A stretch of 29,344 nucleotides of DNA, from IMG/VR virus record IMGVR_UViG_3300003323_001383, one strand, 5' to 3'. This document shows positions 2,928-25,043 of this stretch, piece by piece. Under the pieces are notes generated by a model. The model saw nothing but the letters and a program-made list of their open reading frames with translations, did not search any database and had not been told where the DNA came from. The stretch is from a virus. The position numbers were made by a program, and so were the translations under genes. Every line of letters starts with the position of its first letter. The stretch's first letter is position 1.

Positions 2928-3497
2928 TTAGAGGACGAAGTCCTCCGCCAGGGCCTCCCGCAGGCGCGAGATGGTCCGGGCGTGTATCTGCGAGATGCGG
3001 GGCTCGGACACGCCGAGCTCGGCCGCTATGGAGCGATAGTCCACGCCGTGGACGTGGTGGGAGACGAAGATGTGGCGCTCGCGCCACGGGAGGAGGTCGA
3101 CGAGTTCCCAGACCTTCGACAGGGCGAGGGCCGCCGCGGTCCTTGCCTCGACGTCGTCGCCCGACATTGCGTCCTCGAGCGACCTGTGCCCGGAGTCGAC
3201 GAGGACGTGGACCGCCCTGTCCGGGTCGCCCTTGGCCCTCATGCGGTGGTGCCTCGGCATCCAGTCCTTCGTCCGCAGGTCGTCCTTTATGGCGCCGCGG
3301 ATCCTTATCCTCGCGTAGGCCCCGAAGTTCTCGCAGTCGGGGTGGAGGCGCGCCGCGTCCCAGAGGCCGGACATCGCGGCCGCGTGGAGGTCGTCGTACA
3401 TGATGTGCGCCGGAAGGCGCCGCTTGAACCCGAGCGCGATGCTGCGGGCGAGGTGTGCGTGGTCCTTCATGAGGATCGAGACGCGATACTCGTTCAC
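2928..3497 (-). CDS. sigma-70 family RNA polymerase sigma factor (FliA/group 3-4-like), 189 aa
   Basis: Region 2 motif YARIRIRGAIKDDLR and region 4.2 helix-turn-helix IAAELGVSEPRISQIHARTISRLRE; GTG start. Confidence 0.85.
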   Translation of the reverse strand: MNEYRVSILMKDHAHLARSIALGFKRRLPAHIMYDDLHAAAMSGLWDAARLHPDCENFGAYARIRIRGAIKDDLRTKDWMPRHHRMRAKGDPDRAVHVLVDSGHRSLEDAMSGDDVEARTAAALALSKVWELVDLLPWRERHIFVSHHVHGVDYRSIAAELGVSEPRISQIHARTISRLREALAEDFVL

Positions 3498-6738: not shown

Positions 6739-7095
6739 ATGTCGAGGAGGATGGGGCGGGAGCCCCTCCCCTCCCCGGTGTCGCACCGGTCCTACCTCGC
6801 CAGCCCGGCGTTCGGGCTGGCAAGGTCGGGCCGCAGCATCTTCTCGGTCCCGAAGAGGGGGCCGCTCTTCTACGCCGACTTCGAGGCGACGGAGCTCCGG
6901 ATGATGGCCTCCCTGGGCCTCTTCAGGTTCCCGTGCCCCGCCTGCGGAGACCCGCTCCTGGCGAGCGCCCGCTCCGGACGGAGGTCGATGGGGTACCCGC
7001 ACGACCTTGCCGGAAGCCAGGACGACATCCTCGTCCAGCACGCCCTGAAGAAGGGGGACCCCGAGCACGGCGTCCTCCTCGTCATGACGGCGTAG
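6739..7095 (+). CDS. hypothetical protein, 118 aa, C-terminus VLLVMTA
   Basis: GC3-biased frame starting at ATG 6739; contains FYADFEATELRMMA (resembles family-A polymerase motif A) and CPACG. Confidence 0.6.
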   Translation: MSRRMGREPLPSPVSHRSYLASPAFGLARSGRSIFSVPKRGPLFYADFEATELRMMASLGLFRFPCPACGDPLLASARSGRRSMGYPHDLAGSQDDILVQHALKKGDPEHGVLLVMTA

Positions 7096-7220: not shown

Positions 7221-7264
7221 CGAAGCAGGCGGAGATGGCGCGCCCTCGGGCGTAACGTCGTCCC

Positions 7265-7338
7265 GGGCCCATCGTCTAAGTGGTTAAGGCCCCCGGCTCA
7301 TAACCGGGTAATTCTCGGTTCGAACCCGAGTGGGCCCA
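7265..7338 (+). tRNA. tRNA-Met(CAU), elongator-type (or Ile2 if lysidine-modified)
   Basis: Acceptor GGGCCCA/TGGGCCC (G1:C72), anticodon stem CCCGG/CCGGG loop CTCATAA, T-arm CTCGG-TTCGAAC-CCGAG. Confidence 0.8.
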
Positions 7339-8649: not shown

Positions 8650-9021
8650 ATGTCGAAGAAGACCTACAACGAGCGCCTGAGGGTCCTCATGGAGGTGACG
8701 GCCGCGAGGGCCGGGACGGCGGGTTTCAGCGTCGTGGTCCCGCACGCGAGCCCGAAGGAGGTCTGGCGGCTCGACGGGAAGGACATCCGGGACGTCAAGG
8801 CGAGCCTCTCCGGCATGGCCGAGCTCCAGTCCGACCAGGAGTGCGACGAGTGCCTCGAGCTCCTTCCGAGAGGGCACACGGTCGCCGGGAAGGTCATCCT
8901 CTGGGAGAGGGACGGGGGCATACTCCAGTCCCGGTTCCACTGCACCTGCATCCCCTGCTTCGTCCAGGACCGCGGGGGCTACCTGTCCTCAGCCGTCGTC
9001 GCGCTGGTCATGGAGACCTGA
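8650..9021 (+). CDS. hypothetical Cys-rich protein, about 123 aa, C-terminus VALVMET
   Basis: ORF frame open from 8626; ATG 8650 chosen (first ATG after upstream stop); CDEC...CTCIPC motifs. Confidence 0.6.
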   Translation: MSKKTYNERLRVLMEVTAARAGTAGFSVVVPHASPKEVWRLDGKDIRDVKASLSGMAELQSDQECDECLELLPRGHTVAGKVILWERDGGILQSRFHCTCIPCFVQDRGGYLSSAVVALVMET

Positions 9022-11466: not shown

Positions 11467-11469
11467 GGA

Positions 11470-11499
11470 TTGACGGCGGTACGTCCGCCGGTGTAAAGT
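11470..11499 (+). promoter_or_regulatory. candidate sigma-70-type promoter ahead of the long tRNA-like RNA cluster
   Basis: TTGACG-N18-TAAAGT; the spacer holds the hairpin GGCGG-tacgt-CCGCC, which could instead terminate the E1 gene. Confidence 0.3.
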
Positions 11500-11552
11500 A
11501 ACGACGTCAGCAGCGAGACGCCAAGCGTCTCCGGGACCAGAAGGTCCCTCTC

Positions 11553-11682
11553 GGGGTTCAAGGAGACTGGGTCTCCACCAATCGGTAAAATTGGCAAATC
11601 ACCCAGAGTCGGCAATCGGGCCAGCGATGGCCCTCCCGAACGGCTCTCACAAGCAAGCTAGGTTCGATTCCTAGGGACCCCA
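11553..11682 (+). ncRNA. 130-nt tRNA-shaped RNA with 63-nt insertion at variable-loop position (copy 1, anticodon-loop CGGTAAA)
   Basis: Acceptor GGGGTTC/GGACCCC, D-arm GGAG-ACTGGGT-CTCC, anticodon arm CCAAT-CGGTAAA-ATTGG (GUA, but G33), T-arm CTAGG-TTCGATT-CCTAG. Insertion shares blocks with copies 2 and 3. Confidence 0.6.
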
Positions 11683-11717
11683 CACGCCGGGCCTTCCGGC
11701 GTAAGATCGCAGAGTTC

Positions 11718-11851
11718 GCCCCGTAAGAGGTCTGGGTACCTCATTTCCCTTCCACGGAAACACACAACACCCCAGGCTAGCCAATCGACCCCTCGCGGGG
11801 TCACCAGGCACAGTCTCACATGCATGGATGGTTCGATTCCATCACGGGGCT
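11718..11851 (+). ncRNA. 134-nt tRNA-shaped RNA with 66-nt insertion (copy 2, anticodon UCC)
   Basis: Acceptor GCCCCGT/ACGGGGC, D-arm GAGG-TCTGGGTA-CCTC, anticodon arm TTTCC-CTTCCAC-GGAAA, T-arm GATGG-TTCGATT-CCATC, then T-CCA. Confidence 0.6.
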
Positions 11852-11880
11852 CCAGAGGCGTTCAGCGCGGCAAAGCACAC

Positions 11881-11952
11881 ATGCAATTAGCTCAAAGGTA
11901 GAGCGTCGGCCTACTAAGCCGGATGTTGCGGCCTCGAAAACCGCATTGCAAT
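11881..11952 (+). tRNA. aberrant class-I tRNA, anticodon ACU, imperfect T-arm (undetermined identity or pseudogene)
   Basis: D-arm TAGCTCAAAGGTAGAGC, anticodon stem TCGGC/GCCGG loop CTACTAA, T-arm GCGGC-CTCGAAA-ACCGC (C:A at 53:61, C54), acceptor ATGCAAT/ATTGCAA (A:A at 1:72); AT-richer than its neighbours. Confidence 0.4.
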
Positions 11953-11991
11953 CCAACCTCCCGCTTTCCGAATCGAACGTCTCGTAGTCTT

Positions 11992-12119
11992 GCCCGAAGT
12001 CGGGGTCTGGGACCCCACCAGTTTTTGGAACTGACAAACCCAGCGTCGCGCATCGACCCCCGTGAGAGGGTCAGCAAAGCGGCTCTCACAAGCTTCCGGT
12101 TCGAATCCGGATTCGGGCG
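11992..12119 (+). ncRNA. 128-nt tRNA-shaped RNA with 60-nt insertion (copy 3, anticodon UUG)
   Basis: Acceptor GCCCGAA/TTCGGGC, D-arm GGGG-TCTGGGA-CCCC, anticodon arm CCAGT-TTTTGGA-ACTGA, T-arm TCCGG-TTCGAAT-CCGGA. Insertion ends in CGGCTCTCACAAGC, identical to copy 1. Confidence 0.6.
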
Positions 12120-12146
12120 CAAGGAAAGGCAGAGGTAACGTGAAGG

Positions 12147-12506
12147 ATGAACTCCTCCGTTGATCTGCCTCCGCAAGGCATCCTTCGGCTTCTCGAGGAC
12201 GCGAGGAAGGTGTCCGTGTGGCTCACCGACTGTCACTTCGAGCGAAGGCTCGGGGATCCCTCGGACGTCTCCTTGTTCGACCTCAGCTTCCTGAGAGGCG
12301 ACTTCGCCGAGAGGAACGGGGTCCGGGAGCTCCGCATCGAGGGAGTGACGGTGTGCCATCCGGTGACGAGGCAGGAGCTCGAGCCGTTCTTCGACGGCAG
12401 GGAGGTCGTGAACCTCGTCGGGTGCCGGCACTGCGGCCGTCCTTGCGACCCGGAGCACGGGATCTGCCCGGACTGGGCCGCCGCGGCGTGTGTTCTGTCC
12501 TCGTAG
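12147..12506 (+). CDS. hypothetical protein, 119 aa
   Basis: SD GAAGG before ATG; GC3-biased; last 3 codons and the TAG stop lie inside tRNA-Arg(CCU). Confidence 0.65.
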   Translation: MNSSVDLPPQGILRLLEDARKVSVWLTDCHFERRLGDPSDVSLFDLSFLRGDFAERNGVRELRIEGVTVCHPVTRQELEPFFDGREVVNLVGCRHCGRPCDPEHGICPDWAAAACVLSS

Positions 12507-12571
12507 CCTAAGGGATAGGCGGCGCTTTCCTAAAGCGTTATTATATGCAGGTTCGAGTCCTGCCGAGGACG
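12497..12571 (+). tRNA. tRNA-Arg(CCU)
   Basis: Acceptor GTCCTCG/CGAGGAC, D-arm GCCT-AAGGGAT-AGGC, anticodon stem GCGCT/AGCGT loop TTCCTAA, AT-rich 8-nt variable loop, T-arm GCAGG-TTCGAGT-CCTGC. Confidence 0.8.
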
Positions 12572-12575
12572 CGAT

Positions 12576-12648
12576 GGGGTCGTAGCTCAAATGGGAGAGC
12601 GTCTCGATGGCATCGAGAAGGTAGCCGGATCGTTACCGGTCGACTCCA
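12576..12648 (+). tRNA. tRNA-Ala(GGC)
   Basis: Acceptor GGGGTCG/CGACTCC with G3:U70, anticodon stem TCTCG/CGAGA loop ATGGCAT, T-arm GCCGG-ATCGTTA-CCGGT (A54/T58 instead of T54/A58). Confidence 0.75.
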
Positions 12649-12699
12649 CTGGTAGAAACGCGAGGAGTGCCTCGACACTCTCGATCGTAAGCTCTTGCC

Positions 12700-13089
12700 A
12701 TGCGAGGAGCGACCGTCGAGGACGACCGCGCCGAGTGCCGGCGCCGCTGGTGGTACAAGGGCAAGGACGGCAAGCCATGCCTCCCGACGGCGGATGGCGC
12801 CGAGGAGGACCTCGAGCGCCTCGCCTACTTCGAGTACCGGGGCGTCGACGAGCTGCACGGCGAGCTCGACCGCGTCGGTCCCTACTGCATGCTCACCCAC
12901 CTCGTCGTCACGGCCATGGGGTCGGAGAGGGCGGCGAAGGAAAAGCTCACGTTCGGCAAGGCGTTCGAGTACGCATGCCGCTTTCTCAAGCTCCCGGGCA
13001 GGCCGCCCGTCGACGTGGAGGAGGCCGTCCTCAAGGTCGCGTTCCAGGTAATAGCGACGGGCAGAATAGACGGCCTCCCGGACGCCTGA
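12700..13089 (+). CDS. hypothetical protein, 129 aa
   Basis: ATG-initiated GC3-biased ORF; no domain recognised. Confidence 0.65.
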   Translation: MRGATVEDDRAECRRRWWYKGKDGKPCLPTADGAEEDLERLAYFEYRGVDELHGELDRVGPYCMLTHLVVTAMGSERAAKEKLTFGKAFEYACRFLKLPGRPPVDVEEAVLKVAFQVIATGRIDGLPDA

Positions 13090-13090
13090 C

Positions 13091-13162
13091 GCCCATCAAG
13101 CATTGACGGCGATGCACCGGCTTTGTATACCGGGGAACCCGGTCCGACTCCGGGGATGGGCT
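13091..13162 (+). tRNA. tRNA-Thr(UGU)
   Basis: Acceptor GCCCATC/GATGGGC, D-arm GCAT-TGACGGCG-ATGC, anticodon stem CCGGC/ACCGG (C:A next to loop) loop TTTGTAT, T-arm CCCGG-TCCGACT-CCGGG (C at position 55). Confidence 0.7.
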
Positions 13163-13186
13163 CGGAAGAGCGTAAGGTCGTCCGGC

Positions 13187-13600
13187 ATGGCGGAAGTGAA
13201 CAGCATACCGTTCTCCCCGGACAGCTCCGGGAGGGTGGAGGAGTGCCACAGGCTGGACACGCCGAGTACGACGGGGATGGACCAGTTCCGGTGGACAATC
13301 CTCAAGCCCGGCCTCGTGACGATGGTCAGGATAGTGCCGGTCGCCCCCGGGACCATGAACGAGGAAGGGGTTGCCCCGTGGGACGAAGAGCTCGCCCTCA
13401 AGTGCGAGATAAAGGACATACTCGTAAGGGGGCACCGTCAGGACTGGGAGCTCAGGCACCCGTCCGGGAGGCCCCGCCTCAGCTTTGTGTGGAAGCCGGG
13501 CATGGCGGTGGCTCCGAAGGACACGCTGCAGATCAACATAGCCTCTCCTCCGGGCTCCTACCTGGTCGGGGAGCTCTACCTGACATGGTTGGCGGACTAA
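13187..13600 (+). CDS. hypothetical protein, 137 aa
   Basis: ORF 13103-13600 trimmed to ATG 13187 because the upstream part overlaps tRNA-Thr; TAA stop abuts the next tRNA. Confidence 0.6.
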   Translation: MAEVNSIPFSPDSSGRVEECHRLDTPSTTGMDQFRWTILKPGLVTMVRIVPVAPGTMNEEGVAPWDEELALKCEIKDILVRGHRQDWELRHPSGRPRLSFVWKPGMAVAPKDTLQINIASPPGSYLVGELYLTWLAD

Positions 13601-13671
13601 GCCCTCGTAGCTCAGTGGCAGAGCACGTCCTTGGTAAGGACAAGACACGGGTCCGATTCCCGTCGAGGGCT
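13601..13671 (+). tRNA. tRNA-Thr(GGU)
   Basis: Acceptor GCCCTCG/CGAGGGC, loop TTGGTAA, T-arm ACGGG-TCCGATT-CCCGT (C55), followed by T-CCA. Confidence 0.8.
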
Positions 13672-13677
13672 CCAGTC

Positions 13678-13748
13678 GCGGGACTGGTATAGAGGCTGTG
13701 CCTCGGCTTTCCAAGCCGAAGAGACCGGTTCGAGTCCGGTGTCCCGCT
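13678..13748 (+). tRNA. tRNA-Gly(UCC)
   Basis: Acceptor GCGGGAC/GTCCCGC, anticodon stem TCGGC/GCCGA loop TTTCCAA, T-arm ACCGG-TTCGAGT-CCGGT. Confidence 0.85.
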
Positions 13749-13749
13749 C

Positions 13750-14064
13750 CTAGAGGCCCGCGCGCCTCCGCATCCGGCCCTCCCACTCTCGGCCGAGGCG
13801 CTGCCCGCGCTCCGAGACGGCCTTCCTCTCCCTCGGGTCGGCCACGTCCTTGCTCTTGCCGCGGCTCGAGATGCGCTCCACGGCGGTTATCCGGCCGCAC
13901 GCGACGTGGACGTGGAAGACCTCCGCGTCCTTGTTGAAGCCGTGCTCGTCGAGCTTCCGCGTCGCCGCGGAGACGTCCTTCCTGCTCTGGAACAGGACGC
14001 TCCCGCTGAGGAGGGAGGTGGAGCAGACGACGCGCCATCGGCCGATGTTCATCGGGGTTGCCAT
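13750..14064 (-). CDS. hypothetical protein, 104 aa
   Basis: ATG-initiated ORF with clear GC3 bias on the minus strand; basic C-terminus; no domain recognised. Confidence 0.6.
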   Translation of the reverse strand: MATPMNIGRWRVVCSTSLLSGSVLFQSRKDVSAATRKLDEHGFNKDAEVFHVHVACGRITAVERISSRGKSKDVADPRERKAVSERGQRLGREWEGRMRRRAGL

Positions 14065-14131
14065 CCCGGGGCCTTACGCTCGGGGCCCGCGCACCTCCGT
14101 AGGTCCTTCCCGGACGGGCGTACGGTCCGGG

Positions 14132-14539
14132 ATGGCGAAGGTCCTGATAGTGGACGACTCCGCCCTGGTCCGGGTCCTGATGGCGGACTGGCTGCGGAGG
14201 GAGGGGCACGAGGCGGTCTCCATCGACTCGCCCGCGCTTCTGGGATCGACGATGATGAGGGAGCGCCCCGACATCGTCGTCATGGACGTCGACCTCGGAG
14301 GGGTCCGGGGAGACAGGATGACGGCCGTGGCCCGCGAGAGCGGGCTCATCGACTGTCCGGTGGTCCTCGCCTCGGCGAGGCGCGACTCGGACCTCGCGAT
14401 GCTCTGCGTCGAGTGCGGGGCCATCGGGTACGTGCAGAAGGGCGAGGACGGTCCCGCCTTCGTGCGCGCTCTCGAGTCGTACATGACGCGCCGTTCGCTC
14501 CTCCCGGCGTCGAGGAGGAGAGTGTCTTCGCGGGCGTAG
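14132..14539 (+). CDS. stand-alone response-regulator receiver (CheY-like REC) protein, 135 aa
   Basis: KVLIVDDSALVR...DIVVMDVDLGGVRG...VVLASA... fits the REC fold acidic pocket and phospho-acceptor Asp; TAG stop lies inside tRNA-Gly(GCC). Confidence 0.8.
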   Translation: MAKVLIVDDSALVRVLMADWLRREGHEAVSIDSPALLGSTMMRERPDIVVMDVDLGGVRGDRMTAVARESGLIDCPVVLASARRDSDLAMLCVECGAIGYVQKGEDGPAFVRALESYMTRRSLLPASRRRVSSRA

Positions 14540-14601
14540 CCTAGTGGCTCAGGTGCTGCGTTGCCAACGCAGATACGCGGGTTCGATTCCCGCCGCCCGC
14601 A
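14530..14601 (+). tRNA. tRNA-Gly(GCC)
   Basis: Acceptor GCGGGCG/CGCCCGC, anticodon stem CTGCG/CGCAG loop TTGCCAA, T-arm GCGGG-TTCGATT-CCCGC. Confidence 0.85.
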
Positions 14602-14617
14602 CCGGTAGCGTGCAGTC

Positions 14618-14953
14618 ATGGGAGCAGGATTCTCGGAGCGAGACCTTGGCCGGGTCCCGGGCCTTCCGGAGGTCCGCCTCCTCCTCGTGGGCCGCCCGCT
14701 GAAGGACGGGACCCGAGAGATGACGCTGACCATGAGGAACGTCCAGTCCAGGGACGTGTGCAAGGCCGTGGAAGGGAGGATAGTCATGGACCCCATTCCG
14801 GGGACGGACGGCCTGAGCGACGCCGAGAGGCTGGCGCTCTCCGTCCTCCCGCACTCGGCCGCCCTGAGGAGCGACTTCCCGTCCCTCCTCCGCGACCCGT
14901 TCTGGCAGGCCGCCATCGACGTCCTGCTCGTCGAGCACGTCATGGAGTCGTAG
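14618..14953 (+). CDS. hypothetical protein, 111 aa, C-terminus VEHVMES
   Basis: ATG-initiated GC3-biased ORF; no domain recognised. Confidence 0.65.
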   Translation: MGAGFSERDLGRVPGLPEVRLLLVGRPLKDGTREMTLTMRNVQSRDVCKAVEGRIVMDPIPGTDGLSDAERLALSVLPHSAALRSDFPSLLRDPFWQAAIDVLLVEHVMES

Positions 14954-15055
14954 ATCCCGGCCGGCCCGGCGTAGGCTGGGGGATGACAAGAGGATCCTTC
15001 CACGAGAAGGGCCGGAACCCGTTCCGGTGAGCCCCTGATGCGCGAGGAACCCTGC

Positions 15056-15694
15056 ATGAAACGACTGATCCTAGCCGCTATCCTTTTCCTCCTCCCCGTT
15101 CCGGCCCTGGCCCAGGTCCCCGCCGGGACCTGCTCCTCCTACAGCCTGACCGACAGCTTCGAGGGCTCGTCCGCCAGCCTGTGGTCGCCCTGGAACTCCT
15201 CCTCGACCGGCAGCATCCGCCTGGGAACGACCTCGTCGGCACGGACGGGCTCGTCCGCCGCCCTGATGAGCTTCAACAGCCGGGAGCCGCTGGGAGGGTT
15301 CCTGGTCATCGACAAGCTCTTCAACGTCGGGTCCACGACCACCAAGGCGCGGATGCCCCGCCATGGTTGCCTGGAGCCGACCTTCCCTCCGCCCTCGGGG
15401 CCGCCGAAGTTCTGCATGGCGAGCGCCTGGATCCGGTCCGCCGGGGCCGGCGCTGCCGGGGCGGTCCAGATCATCGACCCGGACACGTGGACCTACCGGG
15501 CCAGTCAGTCCTTCAACATCGTCGGCAGGCCCGGGTGGACCCAGGTCGTGACCCCGGTGTCCACCCAGTTCTGCGACCGTGACGTGGTAGCCCGGGTCGT
15601 GCTGTCCCGGGACTCGACGACCTCCGAGGCGATGGTCGTGGACGACGTCCAGATAACCTGGTTCTTCGGCCCGTCGGGCACGCTTCCCCCATGA
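15056..15694 (+). CDS. secreted protein with jelly-roll/carbohydrate-binding-module-like features, about 212 aa
   Basis: Signal peptide MKRLILAAILFLLPVPALAQ; FEGS..W...ARTGSSAL and C-terminal VVDDVQITW recall CBM/galactose-binding-like folds; alternative ATG at 15038. Confidence 0.6.
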   Translation: MKRLILAAILFLLPVPALAQVPAGTCSSYSLTDSFEGSSASLWSPWNSSSTGSIRLGTTSSARTGSSAALMSFNSREPLGGFLVIDKLFNVGSTTTKARMPRHGCLEPTFPPPSGPPKFCMASAWIRSAGAGAAGAVQIIDPDTWTYRASQSFNIVGRPGWTQVVTPVSTQFCDRDVVARVVLSRDSTTSEAMVVDDVQITWFFGPSGTLPP

Positions 15695-15701
15695 GACAGA
15701 C

Positions 15702-15723
15702 CAGGGAGGTACGGTCCTCCCTG
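15702..15723 (+). terminator. 8-bp stem-loop after the secreted-protein gene
   Basis: CAGGGAGG-tacggt-CCTCCCTG, 8 nt past the stop; no U-tract; tRNA-Gly(CCC) starts 3 nt later. Confidence 0.35.
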
Positions 15724-15725
15724 AT

Positions 15726-15797
<72 letters not shown>

Positions 15798-15804
15798 CCG
15801 TAAC

Positions 15805-15876
15805 GGCGACGTGGTCGAATGGCTCAGGCTCCGGACTGCAAATCCGGCCACGCGGGTTCGATTCCCGCCGTCGCCT
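15805..15876 (+). tRNA. tRNA-Cys(GCA)
   Basis: Acceptor GGCGACG/CGTCGCC, anticodon stem CCGGA/TCCGG loop CTGCAAA, T-arm GCGGG-TTCGATT-CCCGC, T73. Confidence 0.85.
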
Positions 15877-15878
15877 CG

Positions 15879-16277
15879 ATGGACGCAGACTCCGAGCTCC
15901 AGAGGCACCACAAGGCATCGAGGGACGCCCTCGCGGTCGTCCGGGCCGTCCACGCGGCCCTCGACCGCCCGCTGTCCGGCGGGCCGTCGCGGGAGTCCAC
16001 GCAGGCCATCCTGGACGCCGCGCGGAGGGCCGTCCCGCGCCAGGCGGTCCCGCACCCGTGCACGGTCCGGTGCTGGCGCGTCGGCGCCCCGTCGGGCCTC
16101 GACGAGCGAGGGAGGTGCCTGGAGTGCGGGTCCCCCGGCGTCAGGAGCGACAAGGAGGAGTACGAGAGCCTCGTCTCCCCGGAGGTCGTGGCGAGGCTCT
16201 GCGAGCAGCTCATGCTCTTTCGGGACGCCGTGGAGCACCCGGCCGTCCTCGCCGCGGCGGCGGTCGGCGCCCTCTAG
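15879..16277 (+). CDS. hypothetical protein, 132 aa
   Basis: ORF 15819-16277 trimmed to ATG 15879, 3 nt after tRNA-Cys; CxxC (CLEC); stop overlaps the stop of the convergent gene (CTAG). Confidence 0.6.
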   Translation: MDADSELQRHHKASRDALAVVRAVHAALDRPLSGGPSRESTQAILDAARRAVPRQAVPHPCTVRCWRVGAPSGLDERGRCLECGSPGVRSDKEEYESLVSPEVVARLCEQLMLFRDAVEHPAVLAAAAVGAL

Positions 16278-16930
16278 CGGGAGACGGCGTACGCGGCCCG
16301 GAGGCGCTTGTAGTCGTCGTTTGGCGCGCCGGCGGAGGTCGAGGAGTCGGCGACGGAGCAGGCCTCCGGGAACGGGACGCCCTTGTTCACGAGATAGCTC
16401 GTGTGAACGGCCCCGGTCCGGTCGGCCCCGAGGGTGCAGTGGACGAACACGGCCTTAGGGAGGCCGGACTGGTCCGCCATCACGGACGCCACCGTCTCGA
16501 CGAGGCCGGAGAGGTCCCAGCCCGGGGACGTCAGGTAGACCTTCGGGTCCTCGCCCTCGGCGAACCCCTCGATCGGCCACCAGTAGAACGTGGCGGGGAC
16601 GGACTTCCCCTCCGTCCTGAGGATGCACTGCTCCCCGTTCCTCGGGTCCCATCCGGGCTGGAGGTAGGGCGGCCAGTAGGAGGGAGAGGGGGCGCCGATG
16701 CCGAAGGCCGACATCTCCGGCCCGAGCATGTAGGCCTCCCCGACGCAGTCGATGAGGCTGAAGACGACCACCTCCCGCCCGGCGAGAGGGACGCCCGAGG
16801 CCGACTCGAGCTCGTCGAGGGCGAAGGAGTAAGGGTCCCCGACGAGAGGCATGCAGCTCCGGACCAGGGCGTTCCCGCCGACCGTGTCCACGTGCTTCAC
16901 GCGGTCGGGAAAGAAGACTTGTCTCGTCAT
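16274..16930 (-). CDS. Cys-based (dual-specificity/tyrosine) protein phosphatase family protein, about 218 aa
   Basis: Signature VHCTLGADRTG = HCx5R(T/S) P-loop; ATG 16930 preferred over the TTG at 16945 given by the ORF track. Confidence 0.75.
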   Translation of the reverse strand: MTRQVFFPDRVKHVDTVGGNALVRSCMPLVGDPYSFALDELESASGVPLAGREVVVFSLIDCVGEAYMLGPEMSAFGIGAPSPSYWPPYLQPGWDPRNGEQCILRTEGKSVPATFYWWPIEGFAEGEDPKVYLTSPGWDLSGLVETVASVMADQSGLPKAVFVHCTLGADRTGAVHTSYLVNKGVPFPEACSVADSSTSAGAPNDDYKRLRAAYAVSR

Positions 16931-16949
16931 GACGCCATCAGACAATAAA

Positions 16950-17025
16950 GCCCCCGTAGCCTAGCGGATCCAGGCGCTCGTTTTCTAAACGAGGTCACAC
17001 GCTGGTTCGAGTCCAGCCGGGGGCA
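16950..17025 (+). tRNA. tRNA-Arg(UCU)
   Basis: Acceptor GCCCCCG/CGGGGGC, anticodon stem CTCGT/ACGAG loop TTTCTAA, T-arm GCTGG-TTCGAGT-CCAGC, A73 followed by CCA. Confidence 0.85.
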
Positions 17026-17029
17026 CCAC

Positions 17030-17102
17030 GTCCCGTTCTTCTAGAGGCCCAGGAATCTGCCCTCTCAAGGCGGCAACGCGGGTTCGAATCCCGCACGGGA
17101 CG
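17030..17102 (+). tRNA. tRNA-Glu(CUC)
   Basis: Acceptor GTCCCGT/ACGGGAC, anticodon stem CTGCC/GGCGG loop CTCTCAA, T-arm GCGGG-TTCGAAT-CCCGC. Confidence 0.85.
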
Positions 17103-17108
17103 CCCCTT

Positions 17109-17182
17109 ACCGGGGGAGCCAGCTAGGCGACGGCGCCTCTCTTACAAGGAGGAGATGGCGGGTTCGAACCCCGCACCCGGTA
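17109..17182 (+). tRNA. tRNA-Val(UAC)
   Basis: Anticodon stem CCTCT/GGAGG loop CTTACAA, T-arm GCGGG-TTCGAAC-CCCGC, acceptor ACCGGGG/ACCCGGT (G:A at 7:66); 5' end could be 1 nt upstream. Confidence 0.7.
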
Positions 17183-17187
17183 CTCAC

Positions 17188-17259
17188 GTCCCCGTAGTCT
17201 AATGGACAGGCACATCGCTACGAACGATGTATATGCAGGTTCGAGTCCTGCCGGGGACG
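17188..17259 (+). tRNA. tRNA-Arg(ACG)
   Basis: Acceptor GTCCCCG/CGGGGAC, anticodon stem CATCG/CGATG loop CTACGAA, variable TATAT, T-arm GCAGG-TTCGAGT-CCTGC. Confidence 0.85.
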
Positions 17260-17275
17260 CTGTAACGTCAGACGG

Positions 17276-17512
17276 ATGACGAGAGAGGAAAGGGTCCGCG
17301 TCCTGCTCGGGGACGGCGGCTCCCGCTGCAACAAGATGCACCTGGCGGCCGGCTGGGGCTTCGAATGGAGATGGGAGGGAGAAGGGCCGGAGAAGAACGG
17401 GACGATGCGAAGCCGCATGCTGTTCCTCATCGACGGGGAGTGGAGGAGGGCCAAGAGCTGGGACGAGGACGTCCGGCCGCTCCTCAAGGACTTCAAGGCT
17501 CCCGTAGCCTAG
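17276..17512 (+). CDS. hypothetical protein, 78 aa
   Basis: ATG-initiated, Trp/Glu/Arg-rich; last 4 codons and the TAG stop lie within tRNA-Arg(CCG). Confidence 0.5.
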   Translation: MTREERVRVLLGDGGSRCNKMHLAAGWGFEWRWEGEGPEKNGTMRSRMLFLIDGEWRRAKSWDEDVRPLLKDFKAPVA

Positions 17513-17569
17513 AGGATCAGGCACCGCCCTCCGAAGGCGGCTAGGCAGGTTCGAGTCCTGCCGGGAGCG
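17498..17569 (+). tRNA. tRNA-Arg(CCG)
   Basis: Acceptor GCTCCCG/CGGGAGC, D-arm GCCT-AGAGGATC-AGGC, anticodon stem CCGCC/GGCGG loop CTCCGAA, T-arm GCAGG-TTCGAGT-CCTGC. Confidence 0.85.
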
Positions 17570-17583
17570 CGTAGGATCGCAGG

Positions 17584-17847
17584 GTGCGGTGCCTCATCGG
17601 ACGATGCCGGAGGAAGGTGTCCCGTTGGTGGAGGATCGACTCCGCCGACGGGACCTTTCTCACCGCGTCCTGCGGCGTCTGCGGCCCCATCGTCAGCACG
17701 AGCGTCCTCGACAGCTCGGGGGTGACGGCGGTGAGGGAGATAGAGTACGGGGACTTCCTGGCCGCCGAGGTCATGGAGGCGGAGCCCGTCCTCGTGGGGA
17801 GCATCCTGGTCGGGAACGGCCGGATCATGTACGGGCCCCAGCCGTAG
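17584..17847 (+). CDS. hypothetical Cys-containing protein, 87 aa
   Basis: GTG start, GC3-biased; CxxC-like pairs (CLIGRC, CGVC); internal AAEVME 24 residues from the end. Confidence 0.55.
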   Translation: MRCLIGRCRRKVSRWWRIDSADGTFLTASCGVCGPIVSTSVLDSSGVTAVREIEYGDFLAAEVMEAEPVLVGSILVGNGRIMYGPQP

Positions 17848-17876
17848 GTGCCTTTCCTCCCGGCGTACGGTTGGGT

Positions 17877-18053
17877 ATGGACAAGGTCATCGGCGAGTGC
17901 TCCCAGTGCGGTGGCAGGGTCATGTCGAACGGCGTGTGCTCCAACTGTAAGGCGACCGTCAAGCGCCAGCTCCCCGTCATCGAGACGGAGGGAGGCGACG
18001 ACCCGTCGGCGCAGCCCGGGGGCGGCCGCGTCCAGCAACAGTGGGAGCGCTGA
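17877..18053 (+). CDS. small zinc-ribbon protein, 58 aa
   Basis: CSQCGGRVMSNGVCSNC (CxxC-x10-CxxC) right after ATG 17877. Confidence 0.5.
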   Translation: MDKVIGECSQCGGRVMSNGVCSNCKATVKRQLPVIETEGGDDPSAQPGGGRVQQQWER

Positions 18054-18080
18054 CTCGGGCTCTCATCGAAAGGGCGGGAC

Positions 18081-18287
18081 ATGCAGGAAAGAGGGCGGAC
18101 AGGATGCGGATGCATCCCGGGCGAGGTGTGCTGCGACGCGGCCACCGAAGCGTCGAGAAGGCTGAGGGACCTCCTCCCAGAGGCCCTGAAGAATGGGGAC
18201 TGGCGAGAGTTCGACCGGGTCCGTTCATGGCTCACTCAGCACCATTTCGGGTTCGTCAGGCTCACCGGGACCCACGGCCCCGGGTGA
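18081..18287 (+). CDS. hypothetical protein, 68 aa
   Basis: ATG-initiated ORF, moderate GC3 bias, Cys cluster GCGCIPGEVCC. Confidence 0.45.
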   Translation: MQERGRTGCGCIPGEVCCDAATEASRRLRDLLPEALKNGDWREFDRVRSWLTQHHFGFVRLTGTHGPG

Positions 18288-18328
18288 GGAGGCGAGGCCG
18301 ATAGACCCCATGTAAGGTCTCCGAGGAT

Positions 18329-18784
18329 ATGGCGGAGATCCGGAAAGCGTTGACGAAGAGGTACGTCGTGGATCCGAAGCTCCTCCCGGAGCTCGGGCCC
18401 GGCAGGACCGTGGTGACCGGCTACATGTCGGACGACCCGTCGGTCAGGCTCCGGGCGACCGACACAGGCGCCTGGATCCAGATATGGAGGCCGTCGGACG
18501 CCTCCCGATACTTCGAGTATCAGATACCCCTGGAGGAGGCCGAGTCCATGATGGAGCTCTGCTTCCGGCGCACCGCCAGGACGACCTGGGAGGTCAGGCA
18601 CGGCGGAATGACGTGGAGGGTGTGCGAGTACTCGGGGAGGCACGCCGGACTCTGGACCGCGTTCCTCGAGCTCGACACGAGGAGCACGGGCTACGAGGAG
18701 CCGCCGTGGGCCGTCAAGAACGTGAGCGGGGACCGTCGCTTCACGGACGAGGGGCTCTCGCGCCTGCAGAGGACGCCCTCCTGA
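18329..18784 (+). CDS. CYTH-like (triphosphate tunnel metalloenzyme family) protein, divergent, 151 aa
   Basis: Overall pattern EIRK..., GYM...VRLR, RYFEYQIPLEEAE, TWEVRHGG..W.V.EY.G...GL..AFLEL, PPWAVKNVSGDRRFTDEGL parallels CYTH strands; the N-terminal ExExK motif is degenerate (EIRK). Confidence 0.45.
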   Translation: MAEIRKALTKRYVVDPKLLPELGPGRTVVTGYMSDDPSVRLRATDTGAWIQIWRPSDASRYFEYQIPLEEAESMMELCFRRTARTTWEVRHGGMTWRVCEYSGRHAGLWTAFLELDTRSTGYEEPPWAVKNVSGDRRFTDEGLSRLQRTPS

Positions 18785-18834
18785 GGCTCTGCGGGACCAA
18801 GGGCTGCGGCGCCGAGGCCGTGCGCTTCTTCCTC

Positions 18835-19020
18835 ATGACGGGGGCGATCAAGGTCCTCGCGATGACGTGCGAGGACTGCGCCCGGTTCACGGGGCCCGAG
18901 TACACGCCGGTCACGGTCCTCGTGGAGGAGATCGGGGAGGGCGAGCTCGCCGTGCTCGAGGTCATGGAGATTGAGACGGTGCGAGGCTGGACGCCGGGGG
19001 CGCAGCCTCGCACCCGATAG
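18835..19020 (+). CDS. hypothetical small protein, at least 61 aa
   Basis: Frame open upstream to 18484 and includes a CxxxxC pair (LCGTKGC) before the first ATG, so a non-ATG start (GTG 18820 or CTG 18781 overlapping the upstream stop) is possible. The TAG stop is the first 3 nt of tRNA-Gln. Confidence 0.35.
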   Translation: MTGAIKVLAMTCEDCARFTGPEYTPVTVLVEEIGEGELAVLEVMEIETVRGWTPGAQPRTR

Positions 19021-19088
19021 GGAGTCGTCTAAAGGCAGGACATCGAGCTTTGGACTCGCGAATGGGGGTTCGAGTCCCTCCTCCCTAA
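19018..19088 (+). tRNA. tRNA-Gln(UUG)
   Basis: U1:A72 acceptor TAGGGAG/CTCCCTA, loop CTTTGGA, T-arm GGGGG-TTCGAGT-CCCTC. Confidence 0.8.
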
Positions 19089-19089
19089 C

Positions 19090-20535
19090 TCATGGCGGAA
19101 GACGGCGGTTCCTTGCGATCACGCTGTCTTCCTGAAGGGTCGCCTCCTCGTCGTAGTCCTCGTCGTCGACGTCCGGTTCCTCCACGTCCTCGGGCTCCTC
19201 GTCCTCGGGCTCCTCGTCTTCGTCGTCCCCGTCGTCGCTCTCGCCGTACAGCGCCTCGTGCCTGGCGATCTGCGTCATGCAGATCTCGGCCATCCGGAGG
19301 CGGAAGTCCCGGTTCGCCTCCCACTGGCCTTCCTGGCTCCCGTTGGAGGTCGGCGACCACTGGCCGTGGAGGATGGACCCGTAGACGGTGCTCACGTAGG
19401 CGAACTCGGCCATGTCGATCACGTAGGCCGCCATCTCCGCTTCGTTCTTCGCGAGGGAGAGGCCGAGGGAGAAGGCCTCCCGGAGGCCGAACCCGGTCGT
19501 CCCCTCCCGGCCATAGATCCCCCTGGAGAAGGCGTTGGAGTGGTCGTACGTCTCGTGGAGCCTCAGCTCGGCGTAGGCCGCGCGCAGCTCCTCGCGCTTC
19601 TCCGGGTCGATGGCCGTCTCCTCGATCTTCCTCTCGATCTCGGCCTTCCTCTTCATGGAATCGAGGGTCTTCTCCAGGAGCTCCAGGGCGTCGCCCTTCA
19701 TCCGCTCGAAGGTCATAGTCCCGATCTTCGTGGAGAGGAGGACCTGCCAGACGTCCTCGCGGATCATCGCCTGGGATGTGGGGCGCGGCTCGACGATCCA
19801 GGCCCTCTCCTTTCGGCCGACGGGACTGCCGACGTAGACGTCCTCTCCCGGCAGGGCGGCGACCAGTATCTCGGCCGGGCTCGCGTAGTTCCCGGTCCCG
19901 ACGGTGATCATGGCCGCGTACCCGGCGGCCTTGATGGCCTCGAGCGCCGCGTCGAGCTTCCCGTCCGGGGAGTCGTAGCGCGAGTACAGGTCGAGGCGCA
20001 CGCGGACATACCCGCTGGAGACCTCGTCCACCATGTGGCCGGTGCCGCGCTCCTCAGAGTGGAGGGGTAGGCCCGCCTTCTCGAGGGCGGCGCGGATCCT
20101 CCGCACTGACGGGATTCCGGGCTTCGGCTCGTACCTGTCGGGGTCCCACTCGACGTGGGAAGGGAAGGAGTCGGCTATGTTGACCCTGCCCTCCCAGAGG
20201 GCCGTCAGCCAGGCCTTCCTCCCCATGTCGGCCCGGACCTCCACGTCGTGCGAGGAGTTGTCGCCGGGGCCGCGCTCGACGCAGCACCTCCGCAGGGCCT
20301 CGAAGAAGGCGCGCGTGGTCAGGGTGTCGTCGAGGCTCTTGAGTTCGACGGTCCCGTAGTCGTTGTACCGCCCTCTGACGGGCACCCCGTGCGGCTGCCA
20401 CCGGCTGTCGACGTAGCAGTGGTGGGCGTTCCCCTCCGGGGAGGTCGCCGAGCGCTTGAGTGCAAGGAAGCGGACCCTGTTGCCGGACTCCACGGAGAGC
20501 CCGGACACCAGGCATACCTGATTAAATGATCCCAT
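19090..20535 (-). CDS. hypothetical protein, 481 aa, with poly-acidic C-terminal tail
   Basis: Long GC3-biased ORF; tail DDGDDEDEEPEDEEPEDVEEPDVDDEDYDEE encoded by short tandem repeats at about 19140-19250; no domain recognised. Confidence 0.75.
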   Translation of the reverse strand: MGSFNQVCLVSGLSVESGNRVRFLALKRSATSPEGNAHHCYVDSRWQPHGVPVRGRYNDYGTVELKSLDDTLTTRAFFEALRRCCVERGPGDNSSHDVEVRADMGRKAWLTALWEGRVNIADSFPSHVEWDPDRYEPKPGIPSVRRIRAALEKAGLPLHSEERGTGHMVDEVSSGYVRVRLDLYSRYDSPDGKLDAALEAIKAAGYAAMITVGTGNYASPAEILVAALPGEDVYVGSPVGRKERAWIVEPRPTSQAMIREDVWQVLLSTKIGTMTFERMKGDALELLEKTLDSMKRKAEIERKIEETAIDPEKREELRAAYAELRLHETYDHSNAFSRGIYGREGTTGFGLREAFSLGLSLAKNEAEMAAYVIDMAEFAYVSTVYGSILHGQWSPTSNGSQEGQWEANRDFRLRMAEICMTQIARHEALYGESDDGDDEDEEPEDEEPEDVEEPDVDDEDYDEEATLQEDSVIARNRRLPP

Positions 20536-23398: not shown

Positions 23399-23481
23399 GG
23401 AAGGACCTGCCGAATGGCCGGCAACGGGACTCGAAATCCCGGGGCACCGAAAGGTGGGAGGTTCGATCCCTCGTCCTTCCG
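23399..23481 (+). tRNA. tRNA-Ser(CGA)
   Basis: Acceptor GGAAGGA/TCCTTCC, anticodon stem CGGGA/TCCCG loop CTCGAAA, long variable arm, T-loop TTCGATC. Confidence 0.8.
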
Positions 23482-23495
23482 CAGTAAGATACCCC

Positions 23496-24410: not shown

Positions 24411-25043
24411 CTACACTCTGGAAGATGAATCGCCCGTGGGGGCGAGCCCGGTTGCTGCCCGGTGCGGACCTTCGGGTCTGGAGATCGAGCCTCCCGTCTT
24501 CCTCCACTGCCATCCACCCGACCAGCCTTCAAACAATCCTTTGAGACGCGCCTCCCTGACAGCAGGGACGATCAGCATCCAGGCTTGATAAGGCATATCT
24601 TTCCGTATATAGTTGCATCGGACGCAGGAGGGGATGACATTCGATTGGAGATGTCCGATGTCGTTATCGATCCTGTCCAACGTCATGCGACCCTCGGTCT
24701 CCAGGCAGTACGCGCAGCCACCCGATATTCGTTCTCGGATGAAATCAGCAGTCAGGTCGTTCTCCCGGCCTCGCCTCCTATCACCTTTTCTGGAATCTAT
24801 GAGAATAAATTTCTCAGGATTCAGGTTCTGAGACCTAGCCTCTCTTATCAAAGAGTTGATCCGGTCTTTCCCCGACCTGGTCCTCTTCCGAGGTGTTTTC
24901 TTATATCGAGCCCCGCGACCCTTCCCGTCACATTTCCGGCATATACTACGAGGCTTGCCGTACATCACCCTCATCAAGGATGGTTCTTTCTCCTCCCCGC
25001 AGGCCTTACATTTGATCTTTTGCGGAATAATGTCCGACATCAC
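24411..25043 (-). CDS. HNH-type homing-endonuclease-like protein, 210 aa, in an AT-richer island
   Basis: CAYCLETEGRMTLDRIDNDIGHLQSNVIPSCVRCNYIRKD = HNH core; N-terminal CKAC...CRKC zinc-finger-like pairs; composition and codon choice (aaa, att, ttt, gat) unlike neighbours. Confidence 0.75.
   Translation of the reverse strand: MMSDIIPQKIKCKACGEEKEPSLMRVMYGKPRSICRKCDGKGRGARYKKTPRKRTRSGKDRINSLIREARSQNLNPEKFILIDSRKGDRRRGRENDLTADFIRERISGGCAYCLETEGRMTLDRIDNDIGHLQSNVIPSCVRCNYIRKDMPYQAWMLIVPAVREARLKGLFEGWSGGWQWRKTGGSISRPEGPHRAATGLAPTGDSSSRV

Follow-up and report, generated by a model that had tools for sequence, protein, structure and literature searches.

The window analysed here is the IMG/VR virus record IMGVR_UViG_3300003323_001383, a stretch of 29,344 nucleotides (nt) with a G+C content of 67%, in which several small protein-coding genes were found to run into the tRNA gene that follows them. 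Four coding sequences (CDSs) terminate at a TAG inside the next co-oriented tRNA gene, reaching tRNA positions 10, 10, 15 and 3, and two further CDSs end 0 and 1 nt ahead of a tRNA. The explanation that we regard as the probable one is that these genes and tRNAs form compact co-transcribed units, in which the upstream reading frames have captured a TAG that belongs to the tRNA and in which this stop codon would be lost when ribonuclease P (RNase P) cuts the transcript, as a tolerated by-product of the layout.

A layout of this kind is already known: phage T5 has such overlaps, and loss of a stop codon during tRNA maturation was proposed for segB of phage T4 in 2008. What is notable in the present case is the number of junctions, their conservation across what appears to be a huge-phage lineage and the architecture around them, with leaderless-looking genes placed behind a box of the form G-TA-NNN-T. 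If stop codons are indeed removed in this way, each transcript would have to choose between message and tRNA, which would inherently cap how far the upstream gene is expressed, and infection would impose a steady load of non-stop mRNA on the ribosome-rescue systems of the host. The lineage offers natural variants of the junction (overlaps of +15, +10 and +3, genes abutting at 0 and 1 nt, and tRNAs with a putative promoter of their own), and annotation pipelines that bar overlaps between CDSs and tRNAs would shorten or miss genuine genes in the tRNA islands of GC-rich phages.

Genes that end inside or directly ahead of a tRNA

Relatives of the window were reached through homologues of one of the overlapping genes, which encodes a stand-alone receiver (REC) domain; these homologues (61-87% identity) led to syntenic contigs with an identical tRNA order. 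The relatives compared are L002 (88-kb contig), L003 (226.5-kb contig), L005 (44-kb contig), L006, L007 and L008, next to L001, a near-identical contig from a root metagenome. Both the tRNA order and the tight junctions of the window are retained in five related genomes.

The 5' ends of the tRNAs were determined with ARAGORN and with the Rfam tRNA covariance model (alignment from model position 1, gathering score 29), and both finders place the five relevant ends at the same bases (12497, 13601, 14530, 17498 and 19018; Rfam scores of 54-68 bits). Acceptor stems are paired at 7/7 positions everywhere in the window and its relatives, with compensatory double changes such as C6-G67 to U6-A67 in the tRNA-Gly(GCC) of L003 and the variants GCTCCCG, GCCCCCG and GTCCCCG in tRNA-Arg(CCG). 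Because the stems stay fully paired through compensatory changes, the tRNAs appear to be under a constraint of their own, and by this sign the tRNAs of the island are functional. The tRNA-Thr(UGU) at 13091-13163, for which the Rfam score is low (Table 1), is conserved in L002.

The initial annotation had proposed that the CDS starting at 12147 and the REC gene end at the TAG formed by positions 8-10 of tRNA-Arg(CCU) and tRNA-Gly(GCC), respectively, and that the CDS starting at 17276 ends inside tRNA-Arg(CCG), with up to four sense codons within the tRNA. Direct reading of the sequence together with both tRNA finders bears this out, the last stop lying at positions 13-15 behind exactly four sense codons, and the receiver domain of the REC protein was recovered as Pfam PF00072 (E=5e-16). 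Equally, the CDS starting at 13187 does end just before tRNA-Thr(GGU), the last base of its TAA being the one that precedes the tRNA, with none in between. For the ORF (open reading frame) ending at 19020, the TAG was correctly placed on the first three nt of tRNA-Gln, whereas the start given for it, ATG 18835, is likely too far downstream. Since homologues align to a Cys motif encoded before this ATG, the true start probably lies upstream of it, likely at CTG 18781, which overlaps the stop of the upstream gene as CTGA (TTGA in the L002 counterpart).

High-G+C DNA is rich in accidental ORFs (77 of at least 40 amino acids (aa) in 9 kb), and codon-position composition was checked for this reason. 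All focal frames have a G+C content at third codon positions (GC3) of 0.86-0.94 with GC1>GC2, as is typical of genuine genes of this window. Purifying selection acts on those for which close orthologues exist, with ratios of non-synonymous to synonymous differences (pN/pS; uncorrected, against the orthologue in the closest relative, L002) of 0.08-0.34. The values are 0.90 and 0.34 for GC3 and pN/pS of the ORF at 12700, 0.92 and 0.23 for the REC gene, and 0.89 and 0.08 for the ORF at 17276, which is 96% identical to its L002 counterpart at the aa level. For the ORF at 12147 (GC3 0.87), a pN/pS of 0.66 was obtained at 55% aa identity, with synonymous sites saturated, and for the ORF at 13187, which is present in the window and L001, a clear orthologue was not found in the other relatives. 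Judged by composition, selection and homology, the overlapping ORFs are real coding genes.

Tight junctions between CDSs and tRNAs exceed chance. In the window, the gaps from a CDS to the next tRNA are -15, -10, -10, -3, 0, 1, 6, 31 and 51 nt (median 0), compared to a median of 24 nt from CDS to CDS (Mann-Whitney p=0.011); pooled over six related genomes, which are not independent of each other, the difference has a p of 8e-4.

The junctions differ in the way they are conserved. At tRNA-Arg(CCU), the overlap of +10 is present in the window, L002, L003 and L008, that is in four of the five lineages, and in L005 a TAA belonging to the gene itself precedes the tRNA by 1 nt. The sole distant homologue found for the 12147 ORF, P0002 from another metagenome (46% identity), has the identical tail ...WAAAACVLSS*, and it is solely from this tail that its predicted overlap with a tRNA follows. 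tRNA-Gly(GCC) hosts the REC stop in the window and in L005 and the stops of other small ORFs, located between REC and the tRNA, in L002, L003 and L008, the overlap being +10 or +15 in every lineage. tRNA-Arg(CCG) shows an overlap of +15 in the window, in L002 and in L003 (there with a different gene of 187 aa) and of +10 in L005 and L008, and the tails encoded within it vary by frame between relatives (KAPVA* at +15 and ..TSP* at +10). The tRNA-Gln overlap exists in the window only, because its TAG at positions 1-3 depends on the pair A2-U71, for which L002 has G2-C71. The CDS starting at 12700 keeps a gap of 1 to 4 nt to its tRNA in all relatives.

At the tRNA-Arg(CCU) junction of L005 (3385-3401; compare L008 3595-3605), 11 extra bases, GTACACGTAAT, are present, which are identical at 7/11 positions to the first 11 bases of the tRNA, GTCCTCGTAGC, and which give the gene its own TAA. 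This insert, the match of which is too short for significance, may have arisen by a duplication through which the overlap was lost.

Further away, ORFs of the AT-rich, distant huge-phage locus L088 mostly stop 2-12 nt before tRNAs, and in the likewise AT-rich and distant L082, ORFs of 111 and 258 aa (at 8650 and 15581) end 13 and 9 nt inside tRNA-Ser genes. Given these two loci, tight or overlapping CDS-tRNA junctions seem to be widespread in the tRNA islands of large phages.

A promoter-like box and probable shared transcripts

The initial annotation had argued that there is no room for separate promoters. This holds for the focal CDS-tRNA junctions, where no promoter-like box is present, and it overlooked that each unit has a box of its own. 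TANNNT is located 5-6 nt upstream of 13 of the 47 independently predicted starts, with 0.12 expected per spacing bin. In a pooled set of 58 boxes aligned from six related genomes, for which start prediction carried a small bonus for the box (the unbiased figure being 13 of 47), a G precedes the TA in 57 cases although G was not a search criterion, and no conserved -35 element was found in these 58 boxes. The first gene of each focal unit has the box 5-8 nt upstream of its ATG (10 nt for the gene at 18329), and operon-internal genes have GGAGG-like sites in place of it. Across the clade, 23 of 65 tRNA 3' ends have a box within 9 nt (1.8 expected), the usual string being a tRNA, 2-4 nt, the box, 5-7 nt and an ATG. 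Within the window the box is spread throughout, for example at 562, 3741, 9033, 12135, 12687, 14605, 17262, 23484 and 25088 on the plus strand and at 24414 and 21371 on the minus strand.

By position and sequence, G-TA-NNN-T looks like a lineage-specific -10 element of leaderless mRNAs, and the phage sigma factor encoded at 2928-3497 on the minus strand is perhaps its reader. A -10 box that drives leaderless mRNAs was described in Actinobacteria, e.g. in mycobacteria (PMC4633059), and the likeness to the window lies in the order of box, 5-8 nt and ATG. The possibility that the box serves as the stop codon of the upstream gene was rejected, as it follows tRNAs as often as genes and as TAC and TAT variants occur. 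Where a box stands 2-4 nt behind a tRNA, the T-loop sequence TTCGAN of that tRNA lies 17-19 nt upstream of the box (e.g. 14585-14611, 17243-17268 and 23464-23490); its use as a -35 element is speculation, in that the spacing fits and is so far a coincidence. A GTAACGT box also stands 6 nt before position 1 of a tRNA-Met (7252-7265), for which transcription may start at or beside the mature 5' end, leaving a near-zero leader for RNase P.

Between the focal genes and their tRNAs nothing of this kind was found. TANNNT is absent from the 60 nt upstream of the tRNAs at 12497, 13601, 14530, 17498 and 19018, GTANNNT does not occur anywhere in the focal upstream CDSs except as the tRNA's own bases 7-13 (GTAGCCT), and no terminator-like hairpin is present at any of the CDS-tRNA junctions. 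The nearest candidate promoter is in each case the box before the first CDS of the unit (12135, 13172, 14120, 17262 and 18312). As neither a box nor a terminator separates gene and tRNA, co-transcription of the focal genes with their tRNAs would be the simplest reading; the earlier suggestion that mRNA and tRNA are probably co-transcribed is supported to this extent, as an interpretation of the sequence. On a shared transcript, cleavage at tRNA +1 would remove the stop codon.

Independent evidence on this point comes from genes that begin at a tRNA, and a contrast from tRNAs with a spacer. The pair of tRNA-Gly(CCC) and tRNA-Cys has its own GTACGGT box within a 31-nt spacer, which is 27-31 nt long with the box at the same place in the window, L002, L005 and L008. 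The ATG at 15879 follows tRNA-Cys so closely that no room is left for a promoter, so this gene must be co-transcribed with the upstream tRNAs, and this tRNA-Cys|g(a)ATG junction recurs in L002, L005 and L008, which together with the window makes four lineages. Genes that begin 1-3 nt past a tRNA 3' end are located in L002 (12234/12237), L005 (6533/6536 and 3474/3476) and L008 (8958/8961), and ORFs with an ATG next to the preceding tRNA also occur in L003, L005 and L008. One of 52 aa in L005 has tRNA-Arg(CCU) 1 nt before its ATG, while its stop is overlapped by 1 nt by tRNA-Ala(UGC). For genes starting 1-3 nt after a tRNA, 3' processing of that tRNA would make a near-leaderless mRNA. Transcripts shared by tRNA and mRNA are thus hard to avoid in this island, as far as its layout can tell.

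Probable stop-codon capture and the alternatives to it

The layout of the junctions suggests how the overlaps could have arisen. A compact unit would consist of a G-TA-NNN-T box, a leaderless ATG usually 5-8 nt further on, one or two small genes and one or more tRNAs without a spacer. Stop codons are scarce in this DNA because of its 67% G+C. Positions 7-15 read GTAGCCTAG in each of the three tRNAs within which a gene terminates at position 10 or 15, and this sequence supplies a TAG in two of the three frames. U8-A9-G10, and in these tRNAs U13-A14-G15, would resist change, since the tRNA needs its TAG and this codon cannot drift, and upstream genes would have come to end there: a GC-rich frame that loses its stop or its spacer would usually meet the TAG of the tRNA next. 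By compaction and the capture of such a protected stop, overlaps would persist without any selection for overlap. tRNA-Thr(GGU) and tRNA-Thr(UGU) have fewer early stops, and the genes preceding them keep their own stop 0-1 nt away.

From this layout we infer the following course of expression. Gene and tRNA would be made as one transcript, and ribosomes trailing the polymerase could terminate at the TAG within the tRNA sequence as long as folding and cleavage of the tRNA have not yet taken place. The RNase P cut at tRNA +1 would then strip the stop and up to four sense codons from the upstream RNA, turning it into a short-lived non-stop message from the end of which later ribosomes would run off, with a low or brief expression of the upstream gene as net effect. 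The stop loss is likely a tolerated by-product of the layout and not a purpose-built switch. Since the tails within the tRNAs differ with the frame, they look like passengers, and variable tails and frames appear to fit compaction and stop capture better than a regulatory device.

Such a device was what the initial annotation had in mind when it took the overlap to couple protein output to tRNA maturation. According to this explanation the overlap itself was selected, with tRNA maturation limiting or timing the upstream proteins and the non-stop products passing to rescue by transfer-messenger RNA (tmRNA) or Arf. The persistence of stops inside tRNA-Gly(GCC) and tRNA-Arg(CCG) in all lineages, despite a differing ORF or frame, and of the tRNA-Arg(CCU) overlap at 46% protein identity would be in line with it, and a like rationale was proposed for the low endonuclease levels of T4 and T5. 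Persistence is, however, expected without selection when a GC-rich frame that loses its stop usually meets the tRNA TAG. Moreover, the tails are not conserved as protein (KAPVA* as opposed to TSP*), the L005 gene has its own TAA ahead of tRNA-Arg(CCU), the overlap at tRNA-Gln is confined to the window and other junctions merely abut the tRNA, at 0 to 9 nt. We do not favour purpose-built coupling and hold it to be a minority possibility.

A further-reaching interpretation is that the huge-phage lineage uses a mitochondrion-like, tRNA-punctuated expression driven from G-TA-NNN-T, in which tRNA excision would set both ends of the messages, start downstream genes and silence upstream ones, while the host RNase P would balance proteins against tRNAs. 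Downstream activation would act through tRNA-Cys|gATG and, in relatives, tRNA-Arg|gATG, upstream silencing through removal of the stop codons of small proteins that include the REC-domain regulator, and the promoter would possibly be served by the sigma factor at 2928-3497. Ojala, Montoya and Attardi are said to have described tRNA punctuation for mitochondria in 1981, tRNA excision reportedly defining the ends of leaderless mRNAs. In mitochondria, polyadenylation turns a terminal U or UA into a full stop codon. A resemblance lies in tRNAs that abut CDSs on both sides, a case in point being the L005 ORF that is bounded by tRNAs at +1 and -1 nt. The ATG at 15879 has the form expected of an mRNA 5' end made by tRNA excision, as have the ORFs of L003, L005 and L008 mentioned above, whereas most genes that follow a tRNA have GTANNNT between tRNA and ATG. 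The window differs in having a complete stop inside the tRNA, and none of the upstream RNAs predicted for a cut at tRNA +1 (...GUUCU, ...UCUUC, ...UUCAAG and ...ACCCGA) ends in an in-frame U or UA. Because nothing would be left for polyadenylation to complete, the defining mitochondrial feature is lacking in the window; two genes, besides, keep a complete stop before the tRNA, and most units seem to have a promoter of their own. We consider punctuation as a general mode of expression unlikely.

The tRNAs could instead be expressed from unrecognised promoters in the upstream genes, or be uncoupled from these genes in another way, in which case most mRNAs would stay uncut and retain their stop. 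Other promoter types would escape detection by a promoter model that was itself inferred, L003 and L005 have TANNNT boxes 3-8 nt before tRNA-Gln, within or at the end of the upstream CDS, and the tRNA-Met at 7265 has its box 6 nt upstream. The focal CDSs, in contrast, are devoid of the lineage's box and no terminators follow them, the tRNA-Cys|gATG junction indicates that tRNA and mRNA share transcripts in the region, and even with an internal promoter, transcripts from the promoter of the CDS would still include the tRNA, for RNase P to act on. Independent expression is accordingly in our estimation distinctly improbable. That the overlapping ORFs are chance frames or the tRNA boundaries miscalled, as the abundance of long spurious ORFs in high-GC DNA might suggest, is hardly credible, being already contradicted by the coding, homology and tRNA-boundary data: GC3 and GC1>GC2 in exactly these frames, low pN/pS where close orthologues exist, a Pfam REC domain in one ORF, homologues retrieved from independent metagenomes and two independent tRNA finders that concur on the 5' ends.

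Several points weigh against stop capture on shared transcripts as set out above. The box is taken for a promoter from its position and enrichment only and could be a signal at the RNA level. An identical form, GTAGCCT, is located at positions 7-13 of five tRNAs (3594, 12503, 14536, 16956 and 17504), so the motif alone cannot define a promoter. Pooled p-values exaggerate the support, given that the relatives do not represent independent samples. Read-through from upstream could yield many transcript forms, and the RNase P, the tRNA 3'-end enzymes and the rescue systems of the host are assumed.

Known systems, the phage lineage and neighbouring features

The closest known arrangement is that of T5. 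When ARAGORN was run on the T5 record AY543070, T5.057, hegD, hegC and T5.069 were found to extend 6, 23, 14 and 24 nt into the co-oriented tRNA that follows, and T5.065 abuts a tRNA without a gap. The window shares with T5 small ORFs interspersed with co-oriented tRNAs in a phage tRNA island and promoters (putative ones here) interspersed among the units; as judged from the sequence, a stop in or abutting the 5' part of a tRNA, a phage tRNA cluster and coding ORFs are all present. T5 differs in being AT-rich with Shine-Dalgarno-led genes, whereas the genes of the window look leaderless, and two of the four overlapping T5 ORFs encode HNH homing endonucleases (hegD = F-TflII and hegC = F-TflI), whereas those of the window encode a REC domain and small proteins and use as stop the tRNA TAG at positions 8-10 and 13-15. 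Processing of the primary transcript was proposed to lower the expression of the T5 endonuclease genes (PMC2330249). For T4 segB, the proposal was that the co-transcript is cut during maturation of tRNA-Arg, behind the last sense codon and ahead of the stop, which would impair the mRNA and give an incomplete protein (Brok-Volchanskaya et al. 2008, PMC2330249). As annotated in the T4 record, segB terminates 5 nt ahead of the tRNA, with no overlap, and it differs from the present case in being one homing-endonuclease gene that is part of a long tRNA precursor.

In Escherichia coli, secG and leuU share a transcript, which RNase P separates with a single cut, and rapid decay of the upstream mRNA follows (Mohanty and Kushner 2007, PMC2241853). 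An mRNA with a downstream tRNA on one transcript is what we suppose for the window too, but a 14-nt spacer leaves the secG stop on the mRNA, whereas six junctions of the window have a spacer of 0-1 nt or an overlap. A terminator follows the tRNA of secG-leuU, and the gene is cellular and has a leader. Literature searches for bacterial surveys of CDS/tRNA overlap found none.

Regarding the origin of the window, ARAGORN identified 34 tRNA genes, 33 of which are on the plus strand, and ARAGORN and the Rfam tRNA model together give a count of 34-35 in 29 kb. The sigma factor and an HNH endonuclease are also encoded, and no capsid or terminase gene is present within the window itself. A megablast search with 9 kb of the window against cultured-phage records gave no DNA match, scans of IMG/VR with single window proteins gave no match, and neither did exact-protein look-ups with the VWA protein and P0001. 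The 472-aa protein encoded directly behind tRNA-Gln on the opposite strand belongs to a family with members on contigs from metagenomes (up to 466 kb) and on viral contigs of IMG/VR (234-452 kb), as well as in an uncultured phage of 485 kb and in GAP32, a jumbo phage of 359 kb. On account of the 34-35 tRNAs, the size of the L003 contig and the presence of the 472-aa family on huge-phage contigs, we conclude that the window in all likelihood represents the tRNA island of a lineage of uncultured phages of large (jumbo or huge) size. A tRNA array is absent from the surroundings of most of the distant relatives of the 472-aa protein, and the comparison therefore rests on five close lineages.

Three candidates were rejected. 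Saccharibacteria as host came from a single 13-kb binned contig in a genome-contig scan, which is too distant and too short as an indicator. Stop-codon recoding was dismissed, as TAG terminates 17 of 46 window genes. A 'tRNA-Pyl(CUA)' called by ARAGORN in L005, with the anticodon loop UUUCUAA, occupies the slot of the window's tRNA-Arg(UCU) and was read as tRNA-Arg(UCU).

Table 1. Coordinates of genes, tRNAs and boxes in the tRNA island of the window
Feature	Position	Strand	Remarks
GTAACGT box	12135..12141	+	5 nt before ATG 12147
CDS, 119 aa	12147..12506	+	Cys-rich C-terminus; TAG 12504-12506 = tRNA-Arg(CCU) positions 8-10; 10-nt overlap
tRNA-Arg(CCU)	12497..12572	+	ARAGORN; Rfam 54.1 bits; acceptor stem 7/7 paired in all relatives
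tRNA-Ala(GGC)	12576..12649	+	3 nt after tRNA-Arg(CCU); ARAGORN, Rfam
GTAAGCT box	12687..12693	+	6 nt before ATG 12700
CDS, 129 aa	12700..13089	+	TGA ends 1 nt before tRNA-Thr(UGU) at 13091; absent from the initial annotation
tRNA-Thr(UGU)	13091..13163	+	ARAGORN only, below Rfam gathering score; A, not U, at position 8
GTAAGGT box	13172..13178	+	8 nt before ATG 13187
CDS, 137 aa	13187..13600	+	TAA abuts tRNA-Thr(GGU), zero bases between; GC3 0.86
tRNA-Thr(GGU)	13601..13674	+	ARAGORN, Rfam
tRNA-Gly(UCC)	13678..13750	+	ARAGORN, Rfam
GTACGGT box	14120..14126	+	5 nt before ATG 14132
CDS, 135 aa, stand-alone REC domain	14132..14539	+	TAG 14537-14539 = tRNA-Gly(GCC) positions 8-10; 10-nt overlap
tRNA-Gly(GCC)	14530..14603	+	Rfam 67.5 bits
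CDS	14618..14953	+	GTAGCGT box at 14605, 2 nt after tRNA-Gly(GCC); 6-nt spacer
tRNA-Gly(CCC)	15726..15799	+	behind GTACGGT box 15709-15715
tRNA-Cys	15805..15877	+	follows tRNA-Gly(CCC)
CDS, 132 aa	15879..16277	+	ATG 1 nt after tRNA-Cys 3' end 15877; pN/pS 0.39 vs L002
GTAACGT box	17262..17268	+	2 nt after tRNA-Arg(ACG), 7 nt before ATG 17276
CDS, 78 aa	17276..17512	+	TAG 17510-17512 = tRNA-Arg(CCG) positions 13-15; 15-nt overlap
tRNA-Arg(CCG)	17498..17570	+	Rfam 58.9 bits
CDS, 151 aa	18329..18784	+	GTAAGGT box 18312-18318, 10-nt spacer; pN/pS 0.28 vs L002
Small Cys-motif CDS	18781..19020	+	probable start; TAG 19018-19020 = tRNA-Gln positions 1-3; GC3 0.94
tRNA-Gln(UUG)	19018..19089	+	ARAGORN; Rfam 54.5 bits
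CDS, 472 aa	19090..20508	-	convergent; conserved; stop abuts tRNA-Gln 3' end (19089-19092)

Convergent packing is also seen for a minus-strand gene at 13750-14064, the stop of which overlaps tRNA-Gly(UCC) by a single nt at its 3' end (13750-13752). The region directly ahead of the island's first overlapping gene, 11467-12146, comprises 680 nt without a convincing CDS and contains four orphan GTANNNT boxes (11493, 11585, 11701 and 11984) and a sigma-70-like TTGACG-18-TAAAGT site at 11470-11499. It further holds a tRNA missed by ARAGORN at 11881-11952, which scores 50 bits with Rfam and has a G+C content of only 51% and the anticodon loop CUACUAA, and a tRNA-like element of 127 nt at 11992-12118, which gives a weak tRNA-Sec match of 23 bits, below threshold. 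Finally, an 86-nt 'tRNA-Gly' reported by ARAGORN at 6959-7044 on the minus strand lies inside the CDS 6739-7095, is without Rfam support and is probably false.

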